The notes: generated by a model from the sequence alone, not told the origin. Shown: positions 14,592 through 50,748, counted from the first letter of the stretch. The stretch is DNA of 64,000 nucleotides from a virus (IMGVR_UViG_3300046832_000578); one strand, 5' to 3'. Program-made: numbers and translations.

Positions 14592-15251
14592 ATGAAACTT
14601 AGTAAAGAAACTGTATCGCTAATTAAGAATTTCGCAGGAATCAATTCGAACCTGCTTCTTAAGAGTGGTAATAAACTAGCAACAATCAGTGCACAGAAGA
14701 ATGTGATGGCTGATGCAACTATCACGGAGACATTCCCTGACTTTGGCATCTACGATCTCAATGAGTTCTTGGGTGCGATGTCTTTGTTTGACGATCCTGA
14801 ACTTGAGTTTGCAGAGAAATTTGTCTCAATCAAACAAGGTAACATGAACATTAAGTTCTTTGCTGCAGACCCAACTGTGCTAACTGCTCCACAAAAAGCA
14901 ATTACATTCCCTGAAGCAGAAATTAACTTTAGTATGTCTGCGAATATGTTAAGTATGATTAACAAAACAGCATCTGTTCTTCGTGCAGCAGATGTGGCAA
15001 TCGTTGGTGATGGTTCAACAATCACTGCAGTGGTTGGAGATAAAAAGAATGCAACAGGAAACTCTTACAGTGAACCTGTTGGAACTACTGACAAAACTTT
15101 TAAGGTAAACTTAAAGGTTGAAAACCTAAAGATGCTTCCAGGAGATTATGAAGTATCAATTTCAAGTAAAAAGATTTCTCGTTTTAAATCTCCGAGCAGT
15201 GACTTGGTTTATTATGTAGCAGTGGAAGCAGATTCTACATTTGAGTTTTAA
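14592..15251 (+). CDS. gp45: Sliding clamp gp45
   Basis: MKLSKET...KNFA.IN, FGIYDLNEFL, ENLKM.PG.Y.V, YYVA.E. Confidence 0.95.
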   Translation: MKLSKETVSLIKNFAGINSNLLLKSGNKLATISAQKNVMADATITETFPDFGIYDLNEFLGAMSLFDDPELEFAEKFVSIKQGNMNIKFFAADPTVLTAPQKAITFPEAEINFSMSANMLSMINKTASVLRAADVAIVGDGSTITAVVGDKKNATGNSYSEPVGTTDKTFKVNLKVENLKMLPGDYEVSISSKKISRFKSPSSDLVYYVAVEADSTFEF

Positions 15252-23864: not shown

Positions 23865-24433
23865 TGTTTATGTTTGATGTAGAAACGCTGGGAGTAGAAT
23901 CAACTTGTGTGATTCTCTCTGCAGCTATGGTTCATTTTGATCCAGAAAAGCGACCAACATATCAAGACTTGTTGGACAATTCATGTTTCGTAAAGTTTGA
24001 TGTGAAGGAACAACTACAACTTGGAAGAACATCATCCAAGGGCACACTTGATTGGTGGAAAGGTCAACACGAATATGTTCGTAAGGTTTCTTTGGATCCA
24101 TCTCGTGAAGATATGACTGTCGAAAATGGCTTGAATGCATTCTATAACTACATGAGTAAGTTTGCAAATGCTGATAAACAAACAATGTGGGCACGAGGTT
24201 CACTTGATCAGATGGCGATTGATTCATTGGCAGTTAGAGTTGGCATGCAAGAAATTACAGGGTATAATGTATGGAGAGATGTCAGAACTGCAGTTGATAT
24301 TCTCTACGGCACTACAAATGGATATGTAGATGTAGATCATCCTTTGTTTAAGCGACATGAAGTCATCAAACATCATCCTGTTCACGACTGTGCACTTGAT
24401 GCAATGCAACTAATGTATGGAAAAATAACTTAA
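23864..24433 (+). CDS. DEDDh 3'-5' exonuclease (DexA-like)
   Basis: FDVETLG, W.RG..D, RDVRT, H.P.HDCALD. Confidence 0.85.
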   Translation: MFMFDVETLGVESTCVILSAAMVHFDPEKRPTYQDLLDNSCFVKFDVKEQLQLGRTSSKGTLDWWKGQHEYVRKVSLDPSREDMTVENGLNAFYNYMSKFANADKQTMWARGSLDQMAIDSLAVRVGMQEITGYNVWRDVRTAVDILYGTTNGYVDVDHPLFKRHEVIKHHPVHDCALDAMQLMYGKIT

Positions 24434-26919
24434 TGGAATTTTACACAAGCGTCCATCCACTGGGCGATAAGATACTCGTTAGAGGGTACGATAAAGGAAG
24501 AGCATATCAGCGTAAGGTAGATTTCTACCCTACGCTTTTTGTCACTTCTAAGAAGCAATCTAAGTGGAAGACTTTGGATGATACATATGTTGATGAAGTA
24601 AAACCTGGAACGATTAAAGATACAAGAGAGTTTGTCAAACGCTACGAAGATGTAGAAGGTTTTGCTGTGTATGGTAATACCAATTACGCATATCAATATA
24701 TCAGCGACACTTATCAAGACGATGTCAATTGGGACATGGAACAAATCAAAGTATTCACCATTGACATTGAGACTGCCACTGAGAATGGATTCCCAGATAT
24801 CCGTAGTGCCAATGAAGAGATTCTTCTAATCACAATTAAGAATCTACAAACGAAAAACATTATCACCTTTGGCACTAAGCCATATGAAAACAAACGAGAA
24901 GATTGTCAGTATGTTTATTGTCGTGATGAACAACAACTACTAAAAGAGTTTATCATTTGGTGGCAACAGAACTATCCAGATTGTATCACTGGTTGGAATA
25001 CAGACTTCTTTGATGTGCCATATCTTATCAAACGATTGGACAGAGAACTTGGTGATTCATTCTCCAAGAAAGTTAGTCCATGGGGTTACATCAATGAACG
25101 CAAGACATTCATTAAAGGCAACGAAGAACTTCACTATGACATTCTAGGTATTTCTCAACTAGACTATCTCGAACTTTATAAAAAATATACATATACAAAG
25201 CAGGAGTCTTATCGTCTGGATTATATCGCACAAGAAGAACTTGGTGATAAGAAGAAAGAGAATCCAGGAACAGACTTTAAAGATTTCTATACAAACTATT
25301 GGGATAAGTTTGTTGAATATAACATTCACGATGTGGAGTTAGTTGATCAACTCGAAGACAAGATGCGTTTGATTGAACTGCATCTGACTATGGCATACAA
25401 TGCTAAGATTAATCCTGAAGATGTTTACTCACAAGTTCGTATGTGGGATACTATCATCTACAATCACCTGCGTAAGAAAGGTATTGTTATTCCAGCAAAG
25501 ACTTCTTCAGGTAAAGATGCACAGTTCGAAGGTGCTTTCGTTAAAGATCCAATTATCGGTATGCATAAATGGGTAGCATCCTTTGACTTAAACAGTTTGT
25601 ATCCGCACTTGATTATGCAATACAACATTAGTCCTGAGACCCTGACCAGTGAGAAACTCTCTGTCACAGTTGATAAATTGCTTAATCAAGAAGTGGATAC
25701 ATCTTATATTAAACGAAGAGATCTAACTCTGACTGCAAATGGATGGACATATCGTAAAGACATCAAAGGTTTTATGCCTGAGTTGATGGAGCATATGTAT
25801 GTTAATCGCTCCAAGTTTAAAAAACAGATGTTGAAAGTTGAACAAGAATACCAAAACGATAAGACAAAGGTTCATCTATTAAAAGATATTTCTCGTCTAA
25901 ACAATCTGCAGATGGCGATGAAGATTGCTCTTAACTCTGCTTATGGTGCGATGGGTAATCAATACTTCCGTTACTTTGATATTCGTATGGCTGAAGGTAT
26001 TACCACTTCTGGTCAGTTATCCATTCGTTGGATGGCAAACAAACTCAATGCATTCCTCAACAAAACTCTCAAGACAGAGGGTAAAGATTTCGTCATTGCC
26101 ATTGATACAGATTCGATCTATCTAACATTGGAAGATTTGATTGAGAAGGTTTGTGAAGGTAAAACTACTGAACAGAAAATCAAAACAATGGACAAGATCT
26201 GTGAAGAAGTTTTTCAACCATTTATTGATCAAGGATATGATGAACTTGCTGACTATATGAATGCGTATGGTCAGAAGATGCAAATGAAACGAGAAGTACT
26301 GGCTGACAAAGCAATCTGGACTGCCAAGAAACGATATGTTATTAATGTTCATAATTCGGAAGGAGTGCAATTTGCGAAACCTAAAATCAAAGTTATGGGT
26401 TTGGAGATGGTCAAGTCGTCTACACCTGCGGTTATTCGTGACAAACTTAGGGATTCGTTACAAGTTATTCTTGCTGGCGATCAAAAAGACCTACATACAT
26501 ATGTAACAGCATTTAAGAAAGAGTTCGATAAACTTCCAGTGCATGAAGTAGCATTTCCTCGTGGTGTGAATGGTATGAAACAGTATGCTGGTTCTCCGAT
26601 TTATACAAAGGGAACACCAATTCATGTTCGTGGTGCGTTGCTCTACAATCATCACTGTAAGCGTATGGGACTAGATAAAAAGTATCAACCAATTCGTGAT
26701 GGTGATAAGATTAAGTTTGTTTATGTTCGTACACCAAACCCTCTGCAAGAAGATGTGATTGCTTTTAGTCAGCATCTTCCAAAAGAGTTTGGACTGGAAG
26801 CATACATAGATTATGATAAACAATTTGAAAAAGTATTTCTTGATGCTCTACAGATTGTTATTCAACCACTAGGTTGGAAGACTCAAGAAGAAAGTTCATT
26901 GGAGGATTTCTTTGGCTAA
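24433..26919 (+). CDS. gp43: Family B DNA polymerase gp43
   Basis: DIET, GWN...FD, YN..D, SFDLNSLYP, K..LNS.YG, IDTDS, KKRY; uninterrupted. Confidence 0.98.
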   Translation: MEFYTSVHPLGDKILVRGYDKGRAYQRKVDFYPTLFVTSKKQSKWKTLDDTYVDEVKPGTIKDTREFVKRYEDVEGFAVYGNTNYAYQYISDTYQDDVNWDMEQIKVFTIDIETATENGFPDIRSANEEILLITIKNLQTKNIITFGTKPYENKREDCQYVYCRDEQQLLKEFIIWWQQNYPDCITGWNTDFFDVPYLIKRLDRELGDSFSKKVSPWGYINERKTFIKGNEELHYDILGISQLDYLELYKKYTYTKQESYRLDYIAQEELGDKKKENPGTDFKDFYTNYWDKFVEYNIHDVELVDQLEDKMRLIELHLTMAYNAKINPEDVYSQVRMWDTIIYNHLRKKGIVIPAKTSSGKDAQFEGAFVKDPIIGMHKWVASFDLNSLYPHLIMQYNISPETLTSEKLSVTVDKLLNQEVDTSYIKRRDLTLTANGWTYRKDIKGFMPELMEHMYVNRSKFKKQMLKVEQEYQNDKTKVHLLKDISRLNNLQMAMKIALNSAYGAMGNQYFRYFDIRMAEGITTSGQLSIRWMANKLNAFLNKTLKTEGKDFVIAIDTDSIYLTLEDLIEKVCEGKTTEQKIKTMDKICEEVFQPFIDQGYDELADYMNAYGQKMQMKREVLADKAIWTAKKRYVINVHNSEGVQFAKPKIKVMGLEMVKSSTPAVIRDKLRDSLQVILAGDQKDLHTYVTAFKKEFDKLPVHEVAFPRGVNGMKQYAGSPIYTKGTPIHVRGALLYNHHCKRMGLDKKYQPIRDGDKIKFVYVRTPNPLQEDVIAFSQHLPKEFGLEAYIDYDKQFEKVFLDALQIVIQPLGWKTQEESSLEDFFG

Positions 26920-27463
26920 TATCAGAGTAATTAAAAAAGGAATAAATGTATCCAAGATACTGAAACAATTACATCAGTATCCAGAGGATTGGGGTGCTCA
27001 GAAAAACATTGATGGTGTAGGAGATCTTGTAGACGATTGCGGATTCCCTGCAGTTGAAGCAGGTGTTCTACAGTTAGTCATGGGAGTTGTCTCATCTAAA
27101 GATCAGTATGTGGGTGATAGTGAGATGTCTGCATCAACACCTGCATATAGTCATCATACAGAAATTATTTCATTCTTAAAGAGACACTTCAAGAAATTTG
27201 ATAGGTGTGGATTCTTATCATTACCCATTGCTGGTGTCGTTGGTCAACATATTGATATTGGATCTTACTATCAAACACGAGATAGATATCATCTTGCAAT
27301 TCAAGGTGCATATGATTATACAGTTGGAGGAGAGACTGTAAGAGTAGAAGAAGGTGACTTGATTTGGTTTGATAATAAACAATCACATGGAACAAAGAAT
27401 GTTGGAGATGCTGTAAGAATTACATTTGTGTTTGATGTTCCGCATGCCAAGAACAATCCATAA
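26912..27463 (+). CDS. Asp/Asn beta-hydroxylase-like 2OG-Fe(II) oxygenase
   Basis: HID.G.YY..RDRYHL, G...WFDNK..H...N....RI.FVFD. Confidence 0.8.
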   Translation: MANIRVIKKGINVSKILKQLHQYPEDWGAQKNIDGVGDLVDDCGFPAVEAGVLQLVMGVVSSKDQYVGDSEMSASTPAYSHHTEIISFLKRHFKKFDRCGFLSLPIAGVVGQHIDIGSYYQTRDRYHLAIQGAYDYTVGGETVRVEEGDLIWFDNKQSHGTKNVGDAVRITFVFDVPHAKNNP

Positions 27464-28830: not shown

Positions 28831-29152
28831 TTTACCCATAATTGTTACAGAAAACAAACACAATGGACTTCAAGCAATTAAATTGACAGAAGGTGCATTT
28901 GAGGGTATAATTTATACCTATGGGAAAGTTAGTATTGATGCAGATGAAGAGAATGATAAGATTCATCTAAAATTTGAATATGAAATTCTTGATTATGCGG
29001 ATAAAGGGTTGACAGACATGAAACCTTTTGAAGCATACATAGGTAAGATACTTGAAGGATTAATCCACGAGGGTGTCGAAGAAAATAATTTAACATACAC
29101 AGGCGGAGTTGATGAGAATAGAACAGAAGATTCTAAGCAATCTGATACATGA
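28820..29152 (+). CDS. Hypothetical protein in the gp40 syntenic position
   Basis: Between uvsX and gp41; homology not confirmed. Confidence 0.55.
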   Translation: MKSNLPIIVTENKHNGLQAIKLTEGAFEGIIYTYGKVSIDADEENDKIHLKFEYEILDYADKGLTDMKPFEAYIGKILEGLIHEGVEENNLTYTGGVDENRTEDSKQSDT

Positions 29153-30500
29153 TGAGCATTATTGTCGTAAGGTAATTCCGTTTCTAAAGAAAGAGTATTT
29201 CACAGATCGTAAAGAAGCAATCCTTACAAGTGAGATTGTTTCCTTCTTCACAAAATACAACAAACCTGCAACAAAAGAAATTCTATCTATTGAAGTTGGA
29301 AATAGAAAAGATCTTAATGACAAAGAGTTAGTTGAACTTGCCGATTATATCGGTAGTTTAAATCATGAGCCAGTTAATGAAGACTGGATGCTAGAAAACA
29401 CTGAGAAGTTTTGTAAAGATAGAGCGGTTTATAATGCGATCCTTAATTCAATTAGTATCATCGATGGGCGAGACAAAATTCATACTAAAGATGCGATACC
29501 TAGCATCCTTAGCGATGCACTCGCTGTTTCTTTTGATAATCACATCGGTCATGACTATCTGGATGACCACCTTTCGAGGTTTGATTTTTATCACAGGGTT
29601 GAAGAGAAAATTCCTTTCGACCTTGACATGTTCAACAAAATCACCAAAGGTGGACTCTCAAAGAAAACCTTAAACATCGCACTTGCTGGCACTGGTGTTG
29701 GTAAGTCATTGTTCATGTGTCACATGAGTGCTGGTTGTTTGACACAAGGTAAAAATGTTTTATACATAACTATGGAAATGGCAGAAGAAAGAATCGCTGA
29801 GAGGATTGATGCGAATCTCTTGAACCTTACCATGGATGAATTGAAAGTTATTGATAAGGATATCTTTGAATCTCGTATCGCAAAGATTACAAGTAAGACT
29901 AAAGGTAAACTAATTGTCAAAGAATATCCAACTGCAAGTGCTCACTCTGGGCACTTTCGTGCATTGCTGGAAGAATTAAAACTGAAACGAGACTTTAGAC
30001 CTGATATAATCTTCATTGATTATCTTAACATCTGTGCGAGTCAGCGAATGAAGCAAGGTGGAAGTATTAACTCTTATACATATATTAAGGCAATCGCAGA
30101 AGAGTTGAGAGGTTTGGCAGTAGAGTATAATGTGCCAATCGTTTCAGCAACTCAAACAACTCGTTCTGGGTATACAAATTCAGATCCAGGACTAGAAGAT
30201 ACGAGTGAATCATTTGGTTTGCCAGCGACCGCTGACTTCATGTTTGCTTTGGTCAGCAATGAAGAATTAGAAGCGTTAAATCAAATCCTTGTAAAACAAT
30301 TAAAGAATCGTTACAACGATCCTAGTTTTTACAAACGATTTGTGATTGGAATTGATAGAGCAAAGATGAAATTGTATGACACAGAAGCATCTGCTCAAGT
30401 TAATATAAGTGACTCTGGTCAAGATGATGAGCCAGTGTTTGATAAGAGTAGTTTTGGTCGCAGACAAAAAGCAGAATCATTCGAGGGATTTAAGTTTTAG
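29112..30500 (+). CDS. gp41: Replicative helicase gp41 (DnaB-like)
   Basis: AGTGVGKS, TMEMAEE.IAERIDAN, DYLNIC, SATQTTR, SESFGLP.TAD, QLKNRY.D. Confidence 0.96.
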   Translation: MRIEQKILSNLIHDEHYCRKVIPFLKKEYFTDRKEAILTSEIVSFFTKYNKPATKEILSIEVGNRKDLNDKELVELADYIGSLNHEPVNEDWMLENTEKFCKDRAVYNAILNSISIIDGRDKIHTKDAIPSILSDALAVSFDNHIGHDYLDDHLSRFDFYHRVEEKIPFDLDMFNKITKGGLSKKTLNIALAGTGVGKSLFMCHMSAGCLTQGKNVLYITMEMAEERIAERIDANLLNLTMDELKVIDKDIFESRIAKITSKTKGKLIVKEYPTASAHSGHFRALLEELKLKRDFRPDIIFIDYLNICASQRMKQGGSINSYTYIKAIAEELRGLAVEYNVPIVSATQTTRSGYTNSDPGLEDTSESFGLPATADFMFALVSNEELEALNQILVKQLKNRYNDPSFYKRFVIGIDRAKMKLYDTEASAQVNISDSGQDDEPVFDKSSFGRRQKAESFEGFKF

Positions 30501-30509
30501 GAGAAAGAT

Positions 30510-31823
30510 ATGGTAAAAGTTATTGTAGCAAAACAGAAACATGATATGACTCATATGTTGGGACAGTTCCCTGATGAGTCGCATTATGATCATCTTATCG
30601 AGGAAGATACAGATGTATACATGCCAGAGATTCCAGGACATCCAGAGATGACATTCTCTGAAGAGAGGATTGTTCTGAAGTTTCGTAAGAATTATTTTAC
30701 AAAAGAACAACAAGACCAAGCATACATTGGACTTCGTGAAGCTGCAACTGAGACGCAGAATCGTGGACTTGCAGCTGGACCAAGAGCAGAGAAGTTAGGT
30801 AATCGTGAATGGGTCACTGAGTATGAATATGACATCGTTGATTACTTCAGTAATCCCAAAGCCAATCTATTTGGTGAAGATCCAATTGAAGCAATTCGTC
30901 AGGCACATAAGAACAAGAAGCCATCTCCGTCTAATCGTAATAATGTTTGGGGTATTTCTACTGTAAAGAAAGACAACTTCGTCTTTGAAGACTGGGTTGA
31001 AGCAACAAGAAAACTTTCTGAGAATGAAATGCGTGCAGAAGCAAAACGAGTTGCTGAGAAATATATCTGTGCAACAACCTATGCCAATGGTGTGTTCTCT
31101 GGTATTGCTGGATGGTTCGATCGTTATCCTCGCATTCCTTATGGTCGTGCAACATCTTATACTGCGAATCATCCAGACAAATTTGCTATGGCGTATCCAT
31201 TCCTACAGCAACTTGCACAGGGTTTTAAAGATCTGTTGCCATGGAGATATGGTAATCAGATGGAAGCAGCAAATAAAATGGATCCTCGTTTCTTAGTTCC
31301 AGAAACTCCATTCACTACTGTCACTGTGAATAGATCTTTTAGAACTGCGTGTCACTTTGATGCAGGTGACCTAACTTCTGGTCTATCAAATCTACTGACA
31401 TTATCAAACAATGGTAATTATCGTGGTTGCCATCTTGTTGCACCAGAGTATCGTGTCGCAGTAAATCCCAGACCTGGAGATCTACTTTTGATTAACAATC
31501 ATGAAGTAATGCATGGTAATACTCAGATTGAATTGCTTGATGATGTGGCAGAGAGAATTTCATTGGTTGTGTACTTCCGTGAGAAGATGCTTGAGTTAGG
31601 ATCTAAAGAGTATGAAGATTGTCGTTTTGACTTTGTTGAATCTCGCAGACTTAATAAAGAACATCCAGAACAACGACCATTGTGGAATGGTGTATCACCA
31701 TCAATGTGGGATTCTAAAGAATGGTTTGATTATCTAGAATCAAAACTAGGTACAGAAGTATTGAACAAGTATCATCCACCAAAGACTACAACTGTTAATG
31801 CACTCGAGGAGTTCTTCGGATAA
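30510..31823 (+). CDS. TET/JBP-family 2OG-Fe(II) dioxygenase (5-methylpyrimidine oxidase)
   Basis: FTTVTVN...RTACHFDAGD (HxD), PGDLLL.NNHEVMHGNT (distal His), RISLV.YFRE (2OG-binding Arg), SGIAG.FDR. Confidence 0.85.
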   Translation: MVKVIVAKQKHDMTHMLGQFPDESHYDHLIEEDTDVYMPEIPGHPEMTFSEERIVLKFRKNYFTKEQQDQAYIGLREAATETQNRGLAAGPRAEKLGNREWVTEYEYDIVDYFSNPKANLFGEDPIEAIRQAHKNKKPSPSNRNNVWGISTVKKDNFVFEDWVEATRKLSENEMRAEAKRVAEKYICATTYANGVFSGIAGWFDRYPRIPYGRATSYTANHPDKFAMAYPFLQQLAQGFKDLLPWRYGNQMEAANKMDPRFLVPETPFTTVTVNRSFRTACHFDAGDLTSGLSNLLTLSNNGNYRGCHLVAPEYRVAVNPRPGDLLLINNHEVMHGNTQIELLDDVAERISLVVYFREKMLELGSKEYEDCRFDFVESRRLNKEHPEQRPLWNGVSPSMWDSKEWFDYLESKLGTEVLNKYHPPKTTTVNALEEFFG

Positions 31824-32518
31824 TGTGTGCCGTAATTGGAACAATCATTCAGAATCCTTCAACAAAGGATTTTGAAAATCTACTTCGTGTATTCCATGAG
31901 TCTAAGATTCGTGGAATGCATGCTACAGGAATCTCATATGTTAAGCATGGTAAAATCCATACTGAGAAACACCCAGTGCCAGCTAATAATTTTCCTTTTG
32001 ATTTGCCAGCGTATGTCAATGAAGATGGAAATCTATACCTTATTGGGCACTGCCGTTATAGCACTAGCGATCTTGAGTATAATCAGCCAATTGCTAATGA
32101 TAATCTCTCAGTAGTTCACAATGGTGTTATTACTCAAGAACTACCAGAGAAATGGAAAGAGTTGTATGGTTATGATTGTGAAACTAAAAACGATACAGAA
32201 TTAATCCTACACACAGCAGAAAATTGCATCTCTCCGTTAGTTCGTTGGAAAGATTCTAGTCTTGCAGTTTGCGAGTTGCATGTTGATAGAGTTATTCGTG
32301 CATATCGCAATGGCAAGCGTCCATTATATTTGACAACTTTCAACAATGGATGTATAATTACCTCTACTGAAAATATTCCTGCACGAGCAGGTATTGAAGG
32401 ATTTACAACTGAGTTACCTTTGAACACTTATATAACTTTTGATGATGCATTGGCTATGATGGTTGAAAAAGAAACGATAGCTGACGCAGTGGATTTCCAA
32501 CACTATGAACTTTGTTAA
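31823..32518 (+). CDS. Class II (Ntn) glutamine amidotransferase, stand-alone glutaminase domain
   Basis: N-terminal MCAVIG (Cys nucleophile), RG.HATG, GHCRYST, NQP, HNG, DTE. Confidence 0.88.
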   Translation: MCAVIGTIIQNPSTKDFENLLRVFHESKIRGMHATGISYVKHGKIHTEKHPVPANNFPFDLPAYVNEDGNLYLIGHCRYSTSDLEYNQPIANDNLSVVHNGVITQELPEKWKELYGYDCETKNDTELILHTAENCISPLVRWKDSSLAVCELHVDRVIRAYRNGKRPLYLTTFNNGCIITSTENIPARAGIEGFTTELPLNTYITFDDALAMMVEKETIADAVDFQHYELC

Positions 32519-33146
32519 TTCTACAAGAGTAGAAGAACTAATTAAAAACAGTCCAGCTGGTAAGAACACCAAGTTCTTATCGGCTGCACACTCATTGTGG
32601 TATCGCTTTCATAATTATGACAAAGCACCACCGATGACATATGAAGTAAATGGTGAAGTTGTATCTCTTATCTTTGCCACATTCAATCGTGACAACTACT
32701 CAAATCTATACGAAATCGTTACAATTGAAGGACATGAAGGTAAAGGATATGCATCCAAGTGTTGGGATGCATGGATTGATTATGCAGTCAAAGAAAGAAA
32801 GATGACTCGATTGAAAATGTCCTGCACACCATCATCTGTTACATGGCACTATAAGAATGGTTTGATTTGGTGGGCAGTAGATCCAACAGGTTCACTTCGC
32901 TCTGATCAACCATTATTCCCAACAAGAGTAGAACAGATTGCTTATCGAGATTATGCTATTGTGAATCCACTTCAAGCACTACCACCATACAAAGCAAGAG
33001 AACAATTTCGATTAGAGGGATTAGAATCCTACAAGTGGGGTGAGAAAAAGAAAGCAAAAAGCCAAGCAGCAATTGATGCAGTGGGTAAGGCATGGTTAAG
33101 AGAAGCACTAATGGAACAACCCTCTTTAGAAGAATTTTTAGTATAA
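32505..33146 (+). CDS. GNAT-family acyltransferase
   Basis: Motif A LYEIVT....EGKGYAS, then S..WHYKNG. Confidence 0.7.
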   Translation: MNFVNSTRVEELIKNSPAGKNTKFLSAAHSLWYRFHNYDKAPPMTYEVNGEVVSLIFATFNRDNYSNLYEIVTIEGHEGKGYASKCWDAWIDYAVKERKMTRLKMSCTPSSVTWHYKNGLIWWAVDPTGSLRSDQPLFPTRVEQIAYRDYAIVNPLQALPPYKAREQFRLEGLESYKWGEKKKAKSQAAIDAVGKAWLREALMEQPSLEEFLV

Positions 33147-34165
33147 TGGATTATCGTTTGCAAGAAAATCGTAAGGAAGCATTCATTCGCTGGTATGCTT
33201 GGTCGTTGAAGTATGATGACTGCGATCCTGCTGTATGGGCAACAAACTATCTGAACAATCGTTATGAACATAATGATGAGCAGAAGTTGTGGTTGTGTTG
33301 GTTGTATGGTAATACATACTATCTTCCAACTGCATGGATTCTTATGAACGAGTTTCCAGACTTTGAGTTAGCCACTGTAGATCGTATGACACAATGGAAC
33401 ACTACAAACTATAAACGATTAAGATACCAAACAGATACAAAGTGGAACAAAGGACACCTCCCTACCATGTTCGCTTCTTACCAACAATTTGTGGGAGACA
33501 AAACACAGAGAGAAAGGTTAGAAGAATATTATGGACGCAATGAAGAAGAGAACTTTAATAACCTGTGGACAGGCATTAAGTCTGGGTTGCATAAGTTTGG
33601 TCGTTATTCCACTTGGTTTTATCTTCAGCATCTTAAGCATACTGCTGGTGTCCATATCAATCCTACTTCTCTCATGTTGGATGATTATGATGGCTCTCGC
33701 TCTCATCGTAATGGATTGCTTTATGCCGTTGGACAGGAAGACTTTGTGGATAGAAAACTCACTGGAGGACATTATAGCAACCTTGAAGCACAAGCGTACG
33801 AGATTCTTTGCGAGACGAAAGCGAGATTTCCAGAACTAATTGATCAGATAGATTACTTTACCATGGAAACTTGTTTGTGTTCTTTTAAGAAGATCTTTAG
33901 AGCACATCATGGTCGTTATCTTGGATACTATCTTGATAGACAGGCAGAAGAAATTATGCAGTGTGAGAAGGATGGATGGTATGGTATTGATTGGGATGTT
34001 TTGTGGCAATCACGAGAAGAAACTATCGACTTGAGATTAGACCACAGAAGAGGAATTGATAAAGAAAGATTTTCTAGTTTTATTAATACAGGAAGACTAG
34101 AGAATTTAGAGTGGATGTTTGATGATGAGCAACCTATATTAAATGGATTGGAGATTTTTGCATGA
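33146..34165 (+). CDS. Amino-acid:DNA transferase (aGPT-PPlase2-like, HhH-glycosylase fold)
   Basis: D.DP, WL.WLYG.TY, KFGRYSTWFY.Q.L (HhH-like), ETCLC.FKK, RY.GYY.DR; context with TET and kinase. Confidence 0.75.
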   Translation: MDYRLQENRKEAFIRWYAWSLKYDDCDPAVWATNYLNNRYEHNDEQKLWLCWLYGNTYYLPTAWILMNEFPDFELATVDRMTQWNTTNYKRLRYQTDTKWNKGHLPTMFASYQQFVGDKTQRERLEEYYGRNEEENFNNLWTGIKSGLHKFGRYSTWFYLQHLKHTAGVHINPTSLMLDDYDGSRSHRNGLLYAVGQEDFVDRKLTGGHYSNLEAQAYEILCETKARFPELIDQIDYFTMETCLCSFKKIFRAHHGRYLGYYLDRQAEEIMQCEKDGWYGIDWDVLWQSREETIDLRLDHRRGIDKERFSSFINTGRLENLEWMFDDEQPILNGLEIFA

Positions 34166-34557
34166 GTTTAACAACGACAAGTTCTGTTTCTTTACCAGTA
34201 AGCATTAGTGATATGACCACTGGGAGTATAACTATATCAAACACCAGTGGTAGTTATGGAACCATTGCCATGGGTGTAATAACCGATGACTTACTAGACA
34301 AGTATGAGTTTAATAAACTAACTGTTGATCATAAAGTATCAGCACATGAACTCTTAAAGTTAAAAGATACTGTTCCAACTTATGCAGACGAGATTAAAGA
34401 AAACCTTGCTAAGAATGCATCAAGAGAATTGGTAAAGAAGATTACCTTTACAAAGAAACATGATGTTGACTCTGATGTGCATCACTTTATTGGAAGAGTC
34501 TGGGTATTTACAGAGGAAGAACTAAGAAAACTTATTGAGGAAGTGAAACATGCTTAA
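34162..34557 (+). CDS. Hypothetical protein inside modification operon
   Basis: Ser/Thr-rich N-terminus; overlaps neighbours. Confidence 0.55.
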   Translation: MSLTTTSSVSLPVSISDMTTGSITISNTSGSYGTIAMGVITDDLLDKYEFNKLTVDHKVSAHELLKLKDTVPTYADEIKENLAKNASRELVKKITFTKKHDVDSDVHHFIGRVWVFTEEELRKLIEEVKHA

Positions 34558-35158
34558 AGAAATTGTAGGAACAACTGATCAAATTTCAATTCAGATTATT
34601 CGTGGAGAACCACAGGTGCGTAAACTAATCGCTGTGGGTGGTCAACCTGGAACTGGTAAAACCACTCTATTCCGTAAGTTTATGGAGAAGTATCAATGGG
34701 AGAAAGTCGAACCTAAAAAGATGCTTCCTGCTCTATATTGTAAAGAACTAGACCTATACATTCTAGGTAAGTATGATGATGGAGAAACCTTTGCTGGTAC
34801 AGATCGTCTAAGTATGGCTGTTCAACCAGTGGCACAGGAGTTTGTTAGAGAGACCACCTCCAATATTCTATTCGAGGGAGACCGAATCTTTAATCAGTCC
34901 TTCCTAGAGTTTGCAATGGGACTTCCTAATACAGATCTTCAGGTAATTTACCTTAAAGTTCCAGATGCTATGCTAAAAGAACGCTATGCAGAACGAGGAT
35001 CCGACCAATCTGAGACTTTCCTAAAAGGTCGTGCGACTAAATATAGTAATATATTGTCTAATTTTGAACTGATGCCCTACATTACAGAGTTCGTTAATAC
35101 TAACTTAGAGGAGCAGGGAAAGGTTTTGAGTTTCTTGGAAGGACATTTCAAGAGATAA
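34550..35158 (+). CDS. P-loop kinase (5-hydroxymethylpyrimidine DNA kinase-like)
   Basis: GGQPGTGKTT, LGKY....FAGTDRLS, FEGDR, R..ERGS. Confidence 0.75.
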   Translation: MLKEIVGTTDQISIQIIRGEPQVRKLIAVGGQPGTGKTTLFRKFMEKYQWEKVEPKKMLPALYCKELDLYILGKYDDGETFAGTDRLSMAVQPVAQEFVRETTSNILFEGDRIFNQSFLEFAMGLPNTDLQVIYLKVPDAMLKERYAERGSDQSETFLKGRATKYSNILSNFELMPYITEFVNTNLEEQGKVLSFLEGHFKR

Positions 35159-35179: not shown

Positions 35180-35896
35180 ATGAAGTTCCTAGAAAATGCC
35201 AATTTCGACTGGATGGATCTACTCAACTTTGGGGAACGACCATTCAGAGCGAAGTTCATTCCTGCAAAGGTTTGGAAAGATCTTGATCTCTATCGCAACG
35301 ATGGCAAGGGTCTTTCCAACTACTTCCGTAAGTGGCGAACAAAGATAGAGTTTCGACCAGAGCCATCCAAAGCCAAGATGTATGAATCCTATGTGGCTTG
35401 TGGTGGAGAATACGATCCCACTACTCGCCAGTCTACAATATTCATCTACACCTATTACTTCGATGAATTCCCATTCACAGATAAAACTTGGGACAAATTC
35501 AAGTATCGTCTAATTCAAGTGACTATGCATGAGTTAATACACTTCATGCAGTTCGATCGTAGAGGAGACGAGTGGAGTGGGTATGTAGTTCCTTACAAAA
35601 AGGTTAAGTCACAAAAGAAGAACGACGAGAGAAAGTATCTCTCTGAGTTTGATGAAATACAAGCATATGCACATTGCTGTTTGTTAGACTTTAAAACCTA
35701 TCGTCCAAATGTTCCTATTGACATTCTGTTATCTCGTGCAAAGAAATACAGAGACTCATCAACCCTTAGATCCTATCTAAAGTCCTTCAATTACGACTAC
35801 AAGAACAATGTTGCAATCCCAAAGATTATGCAACAGATTATCAAGTGGGATCGTAAATATCAAAAAACAGTCCGAGCATCTCGTCGTCCTAAATAA
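35180..35896 (+). CDS. Zincin-like HExxH protein
   Basis: MHELIHFMQ ... Y....DEIQAYA. Confidence 0.65.
   Translation: MKFLENANFDWMDLLNFGERPFRAKFIPAKVWKDLDLYRNDGKGLSNYFRKWRTKIEFRPEPSKAKMYESYVACGGEYDPTTRQSTIFIYTYYFDEFPFTDKTWDKFKYRLIQVTMHELIHFMQFDRRGDEWSGYVVPYKKVKSQKKNDERKYLSEFDEIQAYAHCCLLDFKTYRPNVPIDILLSRAKKYRDSSTLRSYLKSFNYDYKNNVAIPKIMQQIIKWDRKYQKTVRASRRPK
35888..35895 (+). promoter_or_regulatory. Late promoter CCTAAATA
   Basis: Recurrent octamer ~30 nt before next start. Confidence 0.65.
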
Positions 35897-35921
35897 TTAG
35901 TATTTACTAATAGGGACAGTG

Positions 35922-36731
35922 ATGGCAGCACAACAGGGCTTCGCCTACGAAAACAATGCATACAAAGCACTTGCCAAATTCGGTATCAGTGCTGGGTCAG
36001 GTGCAGCTGGAGCATCGTCCGATCGCCCAGATCTAGAAATCAAACTTATTAGAGATAAAACAGGTGTCAATAAAGAGGGATGCGAGTTAAAGATTGCACC
36101 CACTGCAGCAGGTTCACTAGTCCTTAAATACTATGATGGTAAATGGGCATATGGTGTGACTGATGATGATCCTGAAAAGGAATTATTAGTAGCACTTGGA
36201 AACAAATACAAACTATTAAATGAGATGAATGTCTCAGGTACATATGGTAAGAATTGGAGAGGTAAAGTTCCTTTTTTACAAAATGATAAAGCAGGTAAGA
36301 AGATTGTTCCAAGTGGTAAGACTAAAGCAGATGCCTACAAAGAAGACATAAAGCAGTTTAGTGGTCCAAACGAAGTCCATATACCTGTCCCAGCCAAAGC
36401 AATTTGCGACTACTACAACTCGAAGAAGTGTGCATATATTAATGTTGGCACACATGGATTCTTTTTACTAAACAAAGCAGATCCATTAAAACTAAATCAA
36501 AAACTGAAGAATAAAATCCCAGACTTTGCTGACATTGCATCATCTAGAATTAGAGTGCGATGCCAATATAAAGGTTCTGGAGATTATCAATTCGTCATGA
36601 CATTAGAGTTTAGTAAAATGGCTAAATCATTATATAATATTGCACCAGTTATGAATGCATCCAATATAACAATTAATGAGATGGCATATCAGACAGAGTA
36701 CAACAAACAGTTAATCGGAGCATTTGCGTAA
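35922..36731 (+). CDS. PD-(D/E)xK restriction-endonuclease-fold protein
   Basis: GF.YE, DRPDL, ELK, YY..K...YI.VG..GFF. Confidence 0.6.
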   Translation: MAAQQGFAYENNAYKALAKFGISAGSGAAGASSDRPDLEIKLIRDKTGVNKEGCELKIAPTAAGSLVLKYYDGKWAYGVTDDDPEKELLVALGNKYKLLNEMNVSGTYGKNWRGKVPFLQNDKAGKKIVPSGKTKADAYKEDIKQFSGPNEVHIPVPAKAICDYYNSKKCAYINVGTHGFFLLNKADPLKLNQKLKNKIPDFADIASSRIRVRCQYKGSGDYQFVMTLEFSKMAKSLYNIAPVMNASNITINEMAYQTEYNKQLIGAFA

Positions 36732-37951
36732 TGTTAAATTTTAAATCATTCTTAAAAGAAGAAACTTTACTAGTAGAGAAAGCACTGAGCAGTGCAGTGG
36801 ACAGTGATGACAAAGGTAAGTTACACGAAATCCTTTTATCAAAATATCTACATCCAGAAACTAAATTACCTGCTCATCATCGTGCAGAATCTGAAAATGA
36901 AGACCATGCTGGCACACCACAGCAAGTGCATGATCGCTTAAAGAAAAAAATTGGCGACGCTGCATATAACGAAATTGATTCTCATGCAAAGTCTACAGCC
37001 AAAGCATTACACGATCATTTAATACAACAGGGACATATCAAACCTGGACATAAGATTGGAAATGTTTACTGGACATCCAACGCTGACAAACCAAACAAAC
37101 CTGGAGATCATGAGAAAACTACTGGCATTAAAGATGTGAACTCAAATGCAGATTTAATCGTAGAAATTCATGATAAAAATGGTAAGGTTATTGGACATCA
37201 TGGAATCTCAGCAAAGTATGGAACAAACAAACAACCAAACTATCGCAATCCAGGACTTGACTCTTTAGAGAAAACTGCAAACATTGCAGCAGGTTCTTTA
37301 AATTCACATTTAAAAGTTCATGCATCAGCGATGGAAAAATTAGGTTACACTGGTTCTGCAGAGGATCGTCATGCTCAATACAAGGCAGACAGTTTGGGTA
37401 TTGATAAAGTAAGAGCAGAACACGCTCGTCTTTCTGGATTACTTTCTTCTGGTAGAAAGTTATCCGCAAAAGAAAAGAATACACATAAACATTTTGAGAT
37501 GTTTGTTAATGCTCATGACAACCATAAGAAACCAGATGAGTTTCTACAGATGGCTGCAGCAAGAGCAAAGTCTGCAGAAGAAGGTGCATTGATTGCTAAA
37601 CGAGCAATCGCCAAGAAATTTGCAGATGGTTTGGCTACACATGATGATACTAAACTTAGAGAAATTGTTAATCAGCATGTATCCGCACCAACTAAAATCC
37701 CGCACACTGTGGCACACTCTCATGTTCAAGATGATGGTTCATCAAAACCTGTAGTAAAACCTGCACATAAAATTGCTGATGAACACTTAGATAATTTTGA
37801 AAATCTTCATGTAGTTCATAATGGTGGCATTGCTGTCAACATTAAGGGTACACATAAGAAAACTGGTAAGATTATGAATGTGGCGACCATGACTATAAAG
37901 GGATCTTCTGGTCCACACAAGGGAGCCAACGGCACTTTCACTCTAGGATAA
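36731..37951 (+). CDS. Putative PD-(D/E)xK-like nuclease / virion internal protein
   Basis: N-terminus MLNFKSFLKEE; GKLHE, NADLIV, GISAK motifs; His-rich. Confidence 0.5.
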   Translation: MLNFKSFLKEETLLVEKALSSAVDSDDKGKLHEILLSKYLHPETKLPAHHRAESENEDHAGTPQQVHDRLKKKIGDAAYNEIDSHAKSTAKALHDHLIQQGHIKPGHKIGNVYWTSNADKPNKPGDHEKTTGIKDVNSNADLIVEIHDKNGKVIGHHGISAKYGTNKQPNYRNPGLDSLEKTANIAAGSLNSHLKVHASAMEKLGYTGSAEDRHAQYKADSLGIDKVRAEHARLSGLLSSGRKLSAKEKNTHKHFEMFVNAHDNHKKPDEFLQMAAARAKSAEEGALIAKRAIAKKFADGLATHDDTKLREIVNQHVSAPTKIPHTVAHSHVQDDGSSKPVVKPAHKIADEHLDNFENLHVVHNGGIAVNIKGTHKKTGKIMNVATMTIKGSSGPHKGANGTFTLG

Positions 37952-49051: not shown

Positions 49052-50083
49052 ATGTTATACATTGATGCAAAGTATGCCCAAATTCTGGGTAGTAGGTTGC
49101 GAAATTTCAAACAGAAAAAAGATTATCTCTGGAACTATTCTTGTCCAGTGTGTGGTGACTCATCTAAAAATAAGTTGAAGGCACGAGGTTACATCTATCG
49201 TGCAGAGTCAGATCTATTTGTTAAGTGCCACAATTGTGGTTATGGTACGAACATTGGTAATTTAATTAAGTATGTAGATACAAAGTTGTATGATGAGTAT
49301 GTGCTTGAAAGATATAAGGCAGGTGCTACTCGTTACAATGCACATAAAGATGTAGCTGAGATACTTGAGCAACCAAAACAAGAACTGCTTGAAGATGATA
49401 TCCTTAGTGGATTGACTCGTCTTGATAAACTCGCACTTGACAAACCAGATCATCCTGCGATAAAATATGTAGAGAACAGAAAGATTCCTCGTGATAAATG
49501 GTATCTTCTTTACTTTACTGCAAAGTTTAAAGCATATACAAACTCTATTACACCAAAGTTTGTAGAGCCAATTGTTGATGAACATCCGAGGATGATTATC
49601 CCATACTTCACTTCCGCAGGGAAGTGTTTTGCATTTCAGGCTAGAGCGTATGGAAATGAAGAGCCTAAGTATTATACCATCAAGGTAGATGAGACACAAG
49701 AAAAGATTTATGGTCTTGAAAGGATTGATTATGCTAAAAGAATTATCGTTGTGGAAGGTCCAATTGACTCACTGTTTCTACAAAATGCAGTGGCTGTTTC
49801 AGGAGCAAGTTTTGATACCCCTACTATTCGTAGCATCCTTACTAATGCTACTATAGTAATGGACAATGAACCTCGCAATAAAGACATTGTCAAACAGTTA
49901 GAGAAGTATATTAATCTAGGTTATAGCGTTTGTATGCTCCCAGATTTCATAGAGCAAAAAGATATCAATGAAATAATTTTGCATGGTAAAAAGACTGCCA
50001 GTGAGATTATGGATCTAATAAATACAAACACCTACTTTGGTATGGAAGCAAAATTAAAATTTAGTACATGGAAGAAAATATGA
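49052..50083 (+). CDS. gp61: DNA primase gp61
   Basis: CPVCGDS...K.KARG, KCHNCG zinc finger, FQAR, VEGPIDSLF, DNEPRN, KDINE (TOPRIM). Confidence 0.95.
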   Translation: MLYIDAKYAQILGSRLRNFKQKKDYLWNYSCPVCGDSSKNKLKARGYIYRAESDLFVKCHNCGYGTNIGNLIKYVDTKLYDEYVLERYKAGATRYNAHKDVAEILEQPKQELLEDDILSGLTRLDKLALDKPDHPAIKYVENRKIPRDKWYLLYFTAKFKAYTNSITPKFVEPIVDEHPRMIIPYFTSAGKCFAFQARAYGNEEPKYYTIKVDETQEKIYGLERIDYAKRIIVVEGPIDSLFLQNAVAVSGASFDTPTIRSILTNATIVMDNEPRNKDIVKQLEKYINLGYSVCMLPDFIEQKDINEIILHGKKTASEIMDLINTNTYFGMEAKLKFSTWKKI

Positions 50084-50748
50084 AAGTAAGGTTGATTAGT
50101 TATAGCAATCCATCCAAAGAAATTGCTGAGCAAGGGCTGTATGATGTTCAAGAACTTATAGCATTCTGCGCAAGGGTGAGCAACCCCAGCAATCAAAACA
50201 ATACAGAGACATCAGAGAAGTTAATTAAGTATTTAATTAAGCATCAACATTGGTCACCTTTAGAGATGGTCAGTGCCTGTTTAGAAATTGAAACAACTCG
50301 TGACATAGCAAGACAAATATTGCGTCATCGTTCTTTTTCGTTCCAAGAATTCAGTCAGCGATATGCTGATCCAACCAAAGACTTATCTTTCGTTCTTAGA
50401 GAAGCCCGACTTCAAGATACGAACAATCGTCAAAATAGTGTTGAGAATACGAATCTAGCATTGGCTGCTTGGTGGGAAGAAAGACAAAAGCGAGTAATTG
50501 AAGAAGCGAAGAATGCTTATGAATGGGCAATCCAACATGGTATCGCCAAAGAACAAGCAAGAGCAGTATTACCAGAAGGATTGACTGTCAGTCGTTTATA
50601 CATGAATGGTACATTACGCAGCTGGATACATTTTATAGAATTAAGATCTGCGAATGGTACACAAAAGGAACATCAAGAAGTCGCACGAGAATGCGCAAAA
50701 GTTATTGCTGAAGTATTTCCTTTGGCAAATGAATTAGTAAAACTATAA
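50080..50748 (+). CDS. thyX: Flavin-dependent thymidylate synthase
   Basis: ARVSNP, HWSPLE, RQILRHRSFSFQEFSQRY, AKEQARAVLP, Q.EH. Confidence 0.95.
   Translation: MKVRLISYSNPSKEIAEQGLYDVQELIAFCARVSNPSNQNNTETSEKLIKYLIKHQHWSPLEMVSACLEIETTRDIARQILRHRSFSFQEFSQRYADPTKDLSFVLREARLQDTNNRQNSVENTNLALAAWWEERQKRVIEEAKNAYEWAIQHGIAKEQARAVLPEGLTVSRLYMNGTLRSWIHFIELRSANGTQKEHQEVARECAKVIAEVFPLANELVKL

Follow-up and report, generated by a model that had tools for sequence, protein, structure and literature searches.

Which base in DNA would be rebuilt, and into what, by an operon that couples a TET/JBP-family dioxygenase to a stand-alone glutaminase, a GNAT-fold acyltransferase, an amino-acid:DNA transferase and a kinase? 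The question is raised by positions 30,510-35,158 of a 64,000 nucleotide (nt) stretch, one strand of the viral DNA IMGVR_UViG_3300046832_000578, which at its full length is referred to here as the window. We propose that the operon, from an uncultured T4-like myophage, serves the post-replicative hypermodification of thymine (T) and that it provides a full path from T to an N-acylaminomethyluracil, a reading that we regard as rather probable. The replicative helicase gene and the genes of the module that follow it are (protein lengths in amino acids, aa):

29109..30500, + strand: gp41-type replicative helicase (DnaB_C and phrog_19 matches), ending 9 nt 5' of the TET gene
30510..31823, + strand: TET/JBP-family 5-methylpyrimidine dioxygenase (TET), 437 aa (Pfam Tet_JBP, E 4.6e-25)
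31823..32518, + strand: stand-alone class II (N-terminal nucleophile, Ntn) glutaminase, 231 aa (GATase_6, E 2.5e-10, and GATase_7)
32505..33146, + strand: GNAT-fold acyltransferase, 213 aa (Acetyltransf_1, E 6.6e-6, 26.8 bits versus cut-off 20.7)
33146..34165, + strand: amino-acid:DNA transferase (AADT, formerly aGPT-Pplase2), 339 aa (ADDT PF18724, E 1.3e-19)
34162..34557, + strand: small protein, 131 aa, no family match
34550..35158, + strand: P-loop kinase of the 5-hydroxymethyldeoxyuridine (5-hmdU) DNA kinase type (Ploopntkinase3, E 2.3e-11)
35180..35896, + strand: HExxH protein, 238 aa, putative metallohydrolase, 3' of the kinase gene

The junctions from gp41 through the TET, glutaminase, GNAT, AADT and 131-aa genes to the kinase measure +9, -1, -14, -1, -4 and -8 nt, and the six + strand genes after gp41 are translationally coupled. 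Relatives place the true AADT start at ATG 33146 (MDYRL...), overlapping the GNAT stop, rather than at the start of the called open reading frame (ORF), 33092. A preceding sequence-only reading had assigned six genes to this locus. All six are present on the + strand, and the domain identities that it gave them (TET/JBP, Ntn glutaminase, GNAT, AADT and P-loop kinase) are borne out by the Pfam matches. As an account of the locus it was incomplete, since it passed over the conserved HExxH gene, the lack of ParB and an insertion in the TET protein.

The HxD..H..R motif that had been claimed for the dioxygenase is present as H282-x-D284, H335 and R349, all invariant in 22 relatives; H282, D284 and H335 are conserved at 90 % or more in 126 diverse homologues. 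An AlphaFold2 model based on the 126-sequence alignment, which came from a representatives search, reached a pLDDT of 96 and a pTM of 0.90, while the 22 close relatives alone gave a pLDDT of 50. Compared with human TET2, the model scored VIA Z 21.0 (root-mean-square deviation 4.6, 271 residues aligned), with Z 20 for CMD1, 18.6 for NgTET1 and ~13 for AlkB/FTO, and a Foldseek search with it gave E 1.3e-10. As modelled, the dioxygenase carries the TET-type double-stranded beta-helix fold.

The nearest short TETs (~300 aa) are 45-47 % identical to the window TET over the catalytic core. Each directly follows a gene of 207-236 aa, with a weak ParB_N match in one case, and one lies two genes away from an AADT; this is the ParB-linked arrangement of Clade C1. 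Within the ParB-dependent subclass of Clade C1, the three members with the highest activity have been shown to be T-dioxygenases, and the ParB-linked subclass was reported to be 'consistently linked with' GATases, P-loop kinases and AADTs (O'Toole et al. 2026, PMC13229309). Relative to its ParB-linked relatives, the window TET has a ~95-aa helical insertion (residues ~92-185) after the conserved NRGxAAG and a C-terminal extension (residues ~375-437) beyond the point where the aligned relatives end. A variable insert governing ParB dependence lies about where this insertion is (PMC13229309). We found no PF02195 match in two complete relatives and no ParB among the window's large ORFs. We also considered whether the TET N-terminus is a fused ParB and rejected this, as hhalign gave a probability of 0.2 % against the ParB neighbouring a relative's TET and the alignment of the model to TET2 begins at residue 1.

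What supplies the hydroxymethyl group? The two complete relatives, G002 (163.6 kb) and G003 (170.8 kb, with terminal repeats), both CheckV-100%, were searched in six frames, and positive controls were detected. Neither genome gave a match to PF00303 (Thymidylat_synt, which includes dUMP and dCMP hydroxymethylases), PF00145 (C5 DNA methylases) or PF01266 (the DAO-family oxidoreductases to which PaMx11 gp47 belongs). No large ORF of the window has a ThyA-like or C5-methyltransferase domain, and the window holds no homologue of PaMx11 gp47 (a flavin adenine dinucleotide, FAD, lyase) or gp51 (a hydroxymethylase). The earlier statement that the window lacks a dUMP hydroxymethylase and a C5-methyltransferase thus holds for its large ORFs and can be extended to the complete relatives. 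The thymidylate synthase named in the same reading was also found:

50068..50748, + strand: ThyX flavin-dependent thymidylate synthase (Thy1, E 1.2e-46)

Judged from this gene, the phage makes ordinary dTMP via ThyX. Because neither the window nor the complete relatives hold another source of 5-hydroxymethylpyrimidines, and because ThyX is present, TET acting on T in DNA is the only visible source. The starting point is likely to be T oxidised in situ, and a fully post-replicative start, as had been claimed, is likely in view of the complete relatives. In the first step of the path, TET would hydroxylate T in duplex DNA to 5-hydroxymethyluracil (5hmU), as its family, its context and the lack of another 5-hydroxymethyl source suggest.

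The kinase matches Ploopntkinase3 (PF18751) with 44 bits (cut-off 27) and has the Walker A sequence GQPGTGKTT. It is 26 % identical to the 5-hmdU DNA kinase gp49 of PaMx11 (pairwise E 9e-9) and 39 % identical to the product of a gene adjoining the TET/AADT cluster of phage Cr30. By homology to characterized 5-hmdU DNA kinases, it would phosphorylate the hydroxymethyl group, yielding 5-phosphomethyldeoxyuridine (5-PmdU).

Membership of 33146..34165 in the aGPT family, on which the initial assignment depended, is clear from a PF18724 score of 71.3 bits (curated cut-off 26.2) and a phrog_3271 match (E 3e-55). E241 and C245 (ETCLC) are invariant and align with the catalytic E243 and C247 of PaMx11 gp46 in a MAFFT alignment bridged by Cr30 and ViI-like sequences; a narrow AADT profile did not match PaMx11 gp46 by hhalign, and profile searches against PDB sequences returned nothing usable. 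Identity to ViI-type transferases is ~27 %. C247 of PaMx11 gp46 is the proposed C6 nucleophile (PMC11472151), and M6 gp51 and ViI gp247 require the corresponding Cys and Glu (PMC8989533). Given the Glu and Cys conserved with the M6, ViI and PaMx11 enzymes, Cys245 of the AADT would attack C6, the phosphate would be expelled and an exocyclic methylene would form.

The nucleophile that meets this methylene may come from the glutaminase. Its residues C2, R30-G31, R78, N100-G101 and D124 are invariant in relatives, among them the Cys at position 2 that had been picked out from the sequence, and its NCBIfam matches are the N-terminal domains of PurF, AsnB and GlmS. The protein consists of the glutaminase domain alone, with no fused acceptor (synthase) domain, and has near-length homologues in 1862 protein clusters. 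Homologues in cultured phages (PaP3-like, Vibrio 1.262.O) were tried as a guide; they are ~25 % identical, lie in amidoligase/gamma-glutamyl-cyclotransferase clusters and were uninformative here.

Complex prediction of the AADT with the glutaminase gave ipSAE values of 0.60, 0.88 and 0.91 (median 0.88) and 0.00 in all three controls; 58 of 80 solved complexes score as high, as do 2 of 110 mismatched pairs, a calibration that holds only roughly here, with predictions run on shallow alignments of our own. The runs agreed in at least 91 % of contacts, with a partner pLDDT of at least 89. On the glutaminase side the predicted interface comprises residues 1, 28-33, 79-81, 101-107, 144-146, 164-167 and 181-184, segments that in the model surround the catalytic Cys, the Arg and the oxyanion hole. 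On the AADT side it comprises RYEHNDE (39-45) and NEFPDFELA (68-76). Both AADT segments are invariant in the window family and in the distant T4-like contig L088, the two lineages that carry the glutaminase, and both are absent from the AADTs of Cr30, ViI-like phages and PaMx11, whose gene clusters lack a glutaminase. Ntn amidotransferases pass ammonia to their acceptor domains through such an active-site-face geometry, the classical ammonia channel. We know of no solved glutaminase-AADT complex, so that the high score is unlikely to reflect a memorized structure.

The glutaminase is thus predicted to dock with its active-site face on the AADT. The proposal that it serves the transferase stands to this extent, as a predicted complex (ipSAE 0.88 versus 0.00 in controls) with the active-site face in the interface. 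With this docking and no glycine/lyase route, glutamine-derived ammonia is the most economical nucleophile. The AADT-bound glutaminase would supply it to form 5-aminomethyldeoxyuridine.

In the last and weakest step of the path, the GNAT would N-acylate the amine, with acetyl-CoA as the probable donor. The GNAT is the most conserved protein of the module, its motif A-like EGxEGxGYASK is invariant, and we found no homologue in cultured phages. In its alignment, the 131-aa protein varies at the Ser/Thr/Gly-rich N-terminus and is conserved over an 85-aa C-terminal domain; it matched nothing in Pfam, PHROG, NCBIfam or Atlas and is an accessory rather than a core member. The HExxH protein has two invariant elements, H117-E118-x-x-H121 and EFDEIQAYAH. 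Its gene lies 3' of the kinase gene in every locus that extends far enough, and also in L088 (42 % identity). It had no match in Pfam, PHROG, NCBIfam or PDB, and an Atlas lookup gave a weak SprT-like lead only (0.85, 16 % of members). We take it as the seventh core gene, encoding a putative metallohydrolase. The weak SprT-like lead raises the question of whether the protein trims the adduct or resolves AADT-DNA covalent intermediates. Further 3', at 35919-37951, the window encodes two proteins of 270 and 406 aa with no assigned role, the first kept in few relatives only and the second in many.

Is this arrangement more than a chance assembly? A scan of IMG/VR found 307 contigs that encode a relative of the TET. 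Among the best ~80 of these 307 loci, and as far as each contig reaches, the order gp41-TET-glutaminase-GNAT-AADT-131-aa-kinase is kept, with TET identities of 73-100 %. Such recurrence shows that the operon is conserved and no chance arrangement. L088, with proteins 42-60 % identical to those of the window, has the TET, glutaminase, GNAT, AADT, kinase and 238-aa genes; a Nuc_deoxyri_tr2 (nucleoside-deoxyribosyltransferase-like) gene takes the place of the 131-aa gene. Some relatives have additional genes: a 2-oxoglutarate (2OG) oxygenase (2OG-FeII_Oxy_5) between TET and glutaminase (L027:1676-2287, L076:11332-11931), a radical S-adenosylmethionine (SAM) enzyme of 474-503 aa before the kinase (L022:6777-8201, L079:6881-8392) or an uncharacterized ORF of 225-242 aa between GNAT and AADT (L012:11114-11791, L058:5332-6060). 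These insertions show that the module is combinatorial, as has been described for T-hypermodification genes in general (Lee et al. 2021, PMC8989533). The phage group probably makes several different adducts.

The operon is embedded in the genome of a T4-like myophage. The window (GC content ~37 %) encodes the gp23 capsid protein, UvsW, gp46/47, the gp45 clamp, the gp44/62 clamp loader, RegA, ligase, the gp43 polymerase, UvsX, the gp41 helicase, ThyX and ribonucleotide reductase. The phage group is uncultured, and the cluster had no megablast match among GenBank phages. Two of these replication proteins bear on where the module may act:

14592..15251, + strand: gp45 sliding clamp (gp45-slide_C match)
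24433..26919, + strand: gp43 DNA polymerase, C-terminus ...SSLEDFFG

Overlapping the gp43 end is a gene for a 183-aa cupin or Asp-Asn beta-hydroxylase-like 2OG oxygenase (26912-27463).

In the window, gp43, TET, GNAT and AADT all end in peptides of the (S/A/G)LE(D/E/I)F(F/L) type, encoded at 26890-26919 (gp43), 31797-31823 (TET), 33120-33146 (GNAT, ...QPSLEEFLV) and 34140-34165 (AADT, ...NGLEIFA). The tail residues of TET, GNAT and AADT are invariant within each family, and the TET tail tracks that of the cognate polymerase in L088 and phage DLP6 and, more weakly, in Cr30:

Window: gp43 ...SSLEDFFG, TET ...NALEEFFG
L088: gp43 ASLEEFFG, TET NSLEEFFA
Stenotrophomonas phage DLP6: gp43 ATLDSFFA, TET ATLGDFFV
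Caulobacter phage Cr30: gp43 ADLSSLFD, TET GATLF

In the TET model the tail forms a short terminal helix at lower confidence. The hydrophobic-acidic C-termini of T4 gp43, gp55 and gp33 are similar; they bind gp45 and are interchangeable (PMC2988020). We suggest from this resemblance that TET, GNAT and AADT are probably carried by gp45 clamps that remain on replicated DNA, and that the gp45 platform may functionally replace the ParB clamp/activator of related TETs. A ParB-less TET with an enlarged insert and a clamp-binding-like tail bears on why some phage T-dioxygenases need a ParB activator.

Two perfect matches to the sigma-70 consensus accompany the operon:

28883..28911, + strand: TTGACA-17-TATAAT, 12 of 12 positions, 5' of gp41 and the operon
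32330..32358, + strand: TTGACA-17-TATAAT, 12 of 12 positions, candidate internal early promoter inside the glutaminase gene and 5' of GNAT

Among 51 distinct relatives, 41 retain all 12 positions of the second, with protein identities as low as 56 %. The two promoters, together with the conservation of the second, suggest that the host sigma-70 polymerase transcribes the operon early and that the GNAT-AADT-kinase half has a promoter of its own inside the operon. By chance, four copies of the T4 late-promoter core TATAAATA are expected in the 64-kb window, but there are none; the late promoter of the phage group must differ.

Taken together, these observations allow a more specific proposal, namely a glutamine-dependent DNA amidotransferase in which the glutaminase-AADT pair would channel ammonia onto the AADT-bound exocyclic methylene formed from 5-phosphomethyluracil and so make 5-aminomethyluracil directly in DNA, with TET, AADT and GNAT tethered to gp45 by their polymerase-like tails and the clamp in the role of the ParB clamp. 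We put this forward tentatively, as possible but with less than an even chance of being right in all its parts. Amidotransferases have been reported as recurrent partners of thymidine-hypermodification genes, with no function assigned (PMC8989533, PMC13229309). As a natural test case the operon is compact and very common, with over 300 IMG/VR contigs and the 1862 glutaminase protein clusters, and it offers a specific and falsifiable mechanism, a DNA-aminating glutaminase-AADT heterocomplex. If true, this would be a new reaction class among enzymes acting on DNA polymers, with ammonia drawn from glutamine, a nitrogen source that has no known precedent in DNA, and would show that aminomethyl-type thymines are reached convergently by a second route. 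The enzymes would also be available for aminating 5hmU or T site-selectively in DNA.

The same start, from T through 5hmU to 5-PmdU, could lead to an amino-acid-derived base if the AADT installs a free amino acid or amine and the Ntn protein and the GNAT tailor the group, for example by hydrolysis of a side-chain or gamma-glutamyl amide on the DNA adduct and acylation of its amine. We consider this rather unlikely. All known AADTs use Gly, Ser or putrescine (PMC8989533), that of the window is ~27 % identical to serine transferases of the ViI type, and the predicted docking of the Ntn site on the AADT is compatible, too, with an amidase working on the nascent adduct; the radical SAM enzyme, extra 2OG oxygenase and other tailoring genes of relatives resemble those of amino-acid-based pathways (M6). 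However, the glutaminase retains the full glutamine-binding and catalytic set of PurF/GlmS/AsnB-type domains, its docking by the active-site face is the classical ammonia-channel geometry, and the window version has no decarboxylase, lyase or ATP-dependent ligase for processing an amino acid. That the dioxygenase instead acts on 5-methylcytosine (5mC), made by a host or an unrecognized phage methylase, and that the cluster builds a cytosine hypermodification, appears very improbable to us. The AADT and kinase families have been characterized on 5hmU only, PF00145 is unmatched in the two complete relatives and the window, and the short TETs nearest to that of the window are ParB-linked enzymes of the Clade C1 type, whose published assignment to T partly rests on the lack of a neighbouring C5-methyltransferase, as in the window. 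These points outweigh, in our view, the oxidation of 5mC by clade A and B phage TETs (PMC8256090) and, in vitro, by phage T-dioxygenases (PMC13229309), as well as the existence of kinase-linked TET/C5-methyltransferase contigs.

A conserved cluster might also operate without bulk hypermodification of the genome, by placing sparse, sequence-specific regulatory marks or by targeting host DNA or RNA. Characterized phage T-dioxygenases are sequence-selective and modify at most ~35 % of T (PMC13229309), and the operon lies among early replication genes behind sigma-70-like promoters. We nevertheless judge this improbable, since the combination of kinase and AADT is known only from virion-DNA hypermodification and the polymerase-like tails point to replicating phage DNA; sparse marking is also a matter of degree and compatible with a thymine hypermodification module.

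Several points weigh against a path ending in N-acylaminomethyluracil. Its steps are all proposed from family membership or modelling. All characterized AADTs, to our knowledge, use amino acids or polyamines and not ammonia, and the complex prediction speaks for predicted binding only. The extra tailoring genes of relatives hint at a more complex adduct than an aminomethyl group. The GNAT assignment is marginal (26.8 versus 20.7 bits), with no sequence relative in PDB, the path assigns no role to the 131-aa and HExxH proteins, and clamp binding is proposed from motif likeness only. Finally, some ParB-less Clade C1 TETs were inactive in E. coli assays (PMC13229309).

How does the thymine module compare with known systems? 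Neighbourhoods of TET/5mYOX, GATase, kinase and AADT have been published from metaviromes (Lee 2021, Fig. 2, sequences 22-25, PMC8989533; O'Toole 2026, PMC13229309), and the neighbourhood type also appears in PMC8256090. The novelty claimed in the sequence-only reading was therefore overstated, as the association of TET_JBP, GATase, kinase and AADT had been described explicitly (PMC8989533, PMC13229309). The window operon resembles the Clade C1 metavirome neighbourhoods in that TET_JBP stands beside a GATase, a kinase and an AADT with no dUMP hydroxymethylase or C5-methyltransferase, and in that 5hmU formed in situ is the proposed acceptor. Unlike them, the window group lacks ParB (complete relatives), and its 437-aa TET has the ~95-aa insertion where the subclass-specific 'vi' inserts lie and a C-terminal extension that ends in a polymerase-like tail. 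The operon is also placed within a block of T4-like replisome genes and has the GNAT and the HExxH protein as core members.

The pathway of PaMx11 leads to 5-acetylaminomethyldeoxyuridine by way of gp46 (AADT), gp47 (FAD lyase), gp48 (acetyltransferase), gp49 (kinase) and gp51 (dUMP hydroxymethylase). The two kinases are homologous, the AADTs fall into one Pfam family and agree in the catalytic Glu and Cys, each phage has a GNAT-type acyltransferase, and the predicted end products may be identical or similar. The routes differ. In PaMx11, 5hmU comes from the nucleotide pool and the amine from glycine transfer followed by the FAD-dependent lyase, whereas the window phage would obtain 5hmU through TET and has, instead of a lyase, a glutaminase predicted on the AADT. 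The window GNAT has no detectable homology to gp48.

Caulobacter phage Cr30, which is cultured and has a T4-like backbone, carries a TET of the long subfamily (46 % identity over residues 1-423) with an AADT (27 % identity) and a kinase (39 %) nearby. Its cluster lies at 51.8-60.7 kb of the record (L082), where the TET is annotated as 'SNF2 DNA repair protein'. In contrast to the window, Cr30 has no glutaminase, GNAT or HExxH gene; it has a weak match to a TET-associated glycosyltransferase, an inositol-1-phosphate synthase and a dGTP-diphosphohydrolase-like gene, and these alternative genes suggest a different adduct. A literature search found no published chemistry of Cr30 DNA. Cr30 offers a TET-initiated pathway in a phage that can be grown.

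With the class II amidotransferases PurF, GlmS, AsnB and GltS the glutaminase shares the N-terminal Cys, the Asn-Gly oxyanion hole, the Arg and Asp for glutamine and, as predicted, an active-site face held against the acceptor enzyme. In those enzymes the glutaminase is a fused domain, whereas in the window it is a separate 231-aa protein whose predicted acceptor is a DNA-base transferase of the AADT family, an arrangement for which we found no solved precedent. In the literature searched, we found no published function for the GATase, no product for this gene combination and no ParB-less, clamp-tail-bearing TET in T4-like phages. New in comparison with the systems described are the predicted glutaminase-AADT complex, the ParB-less TET with its insertion and the polymerase-mimicking TET tail.

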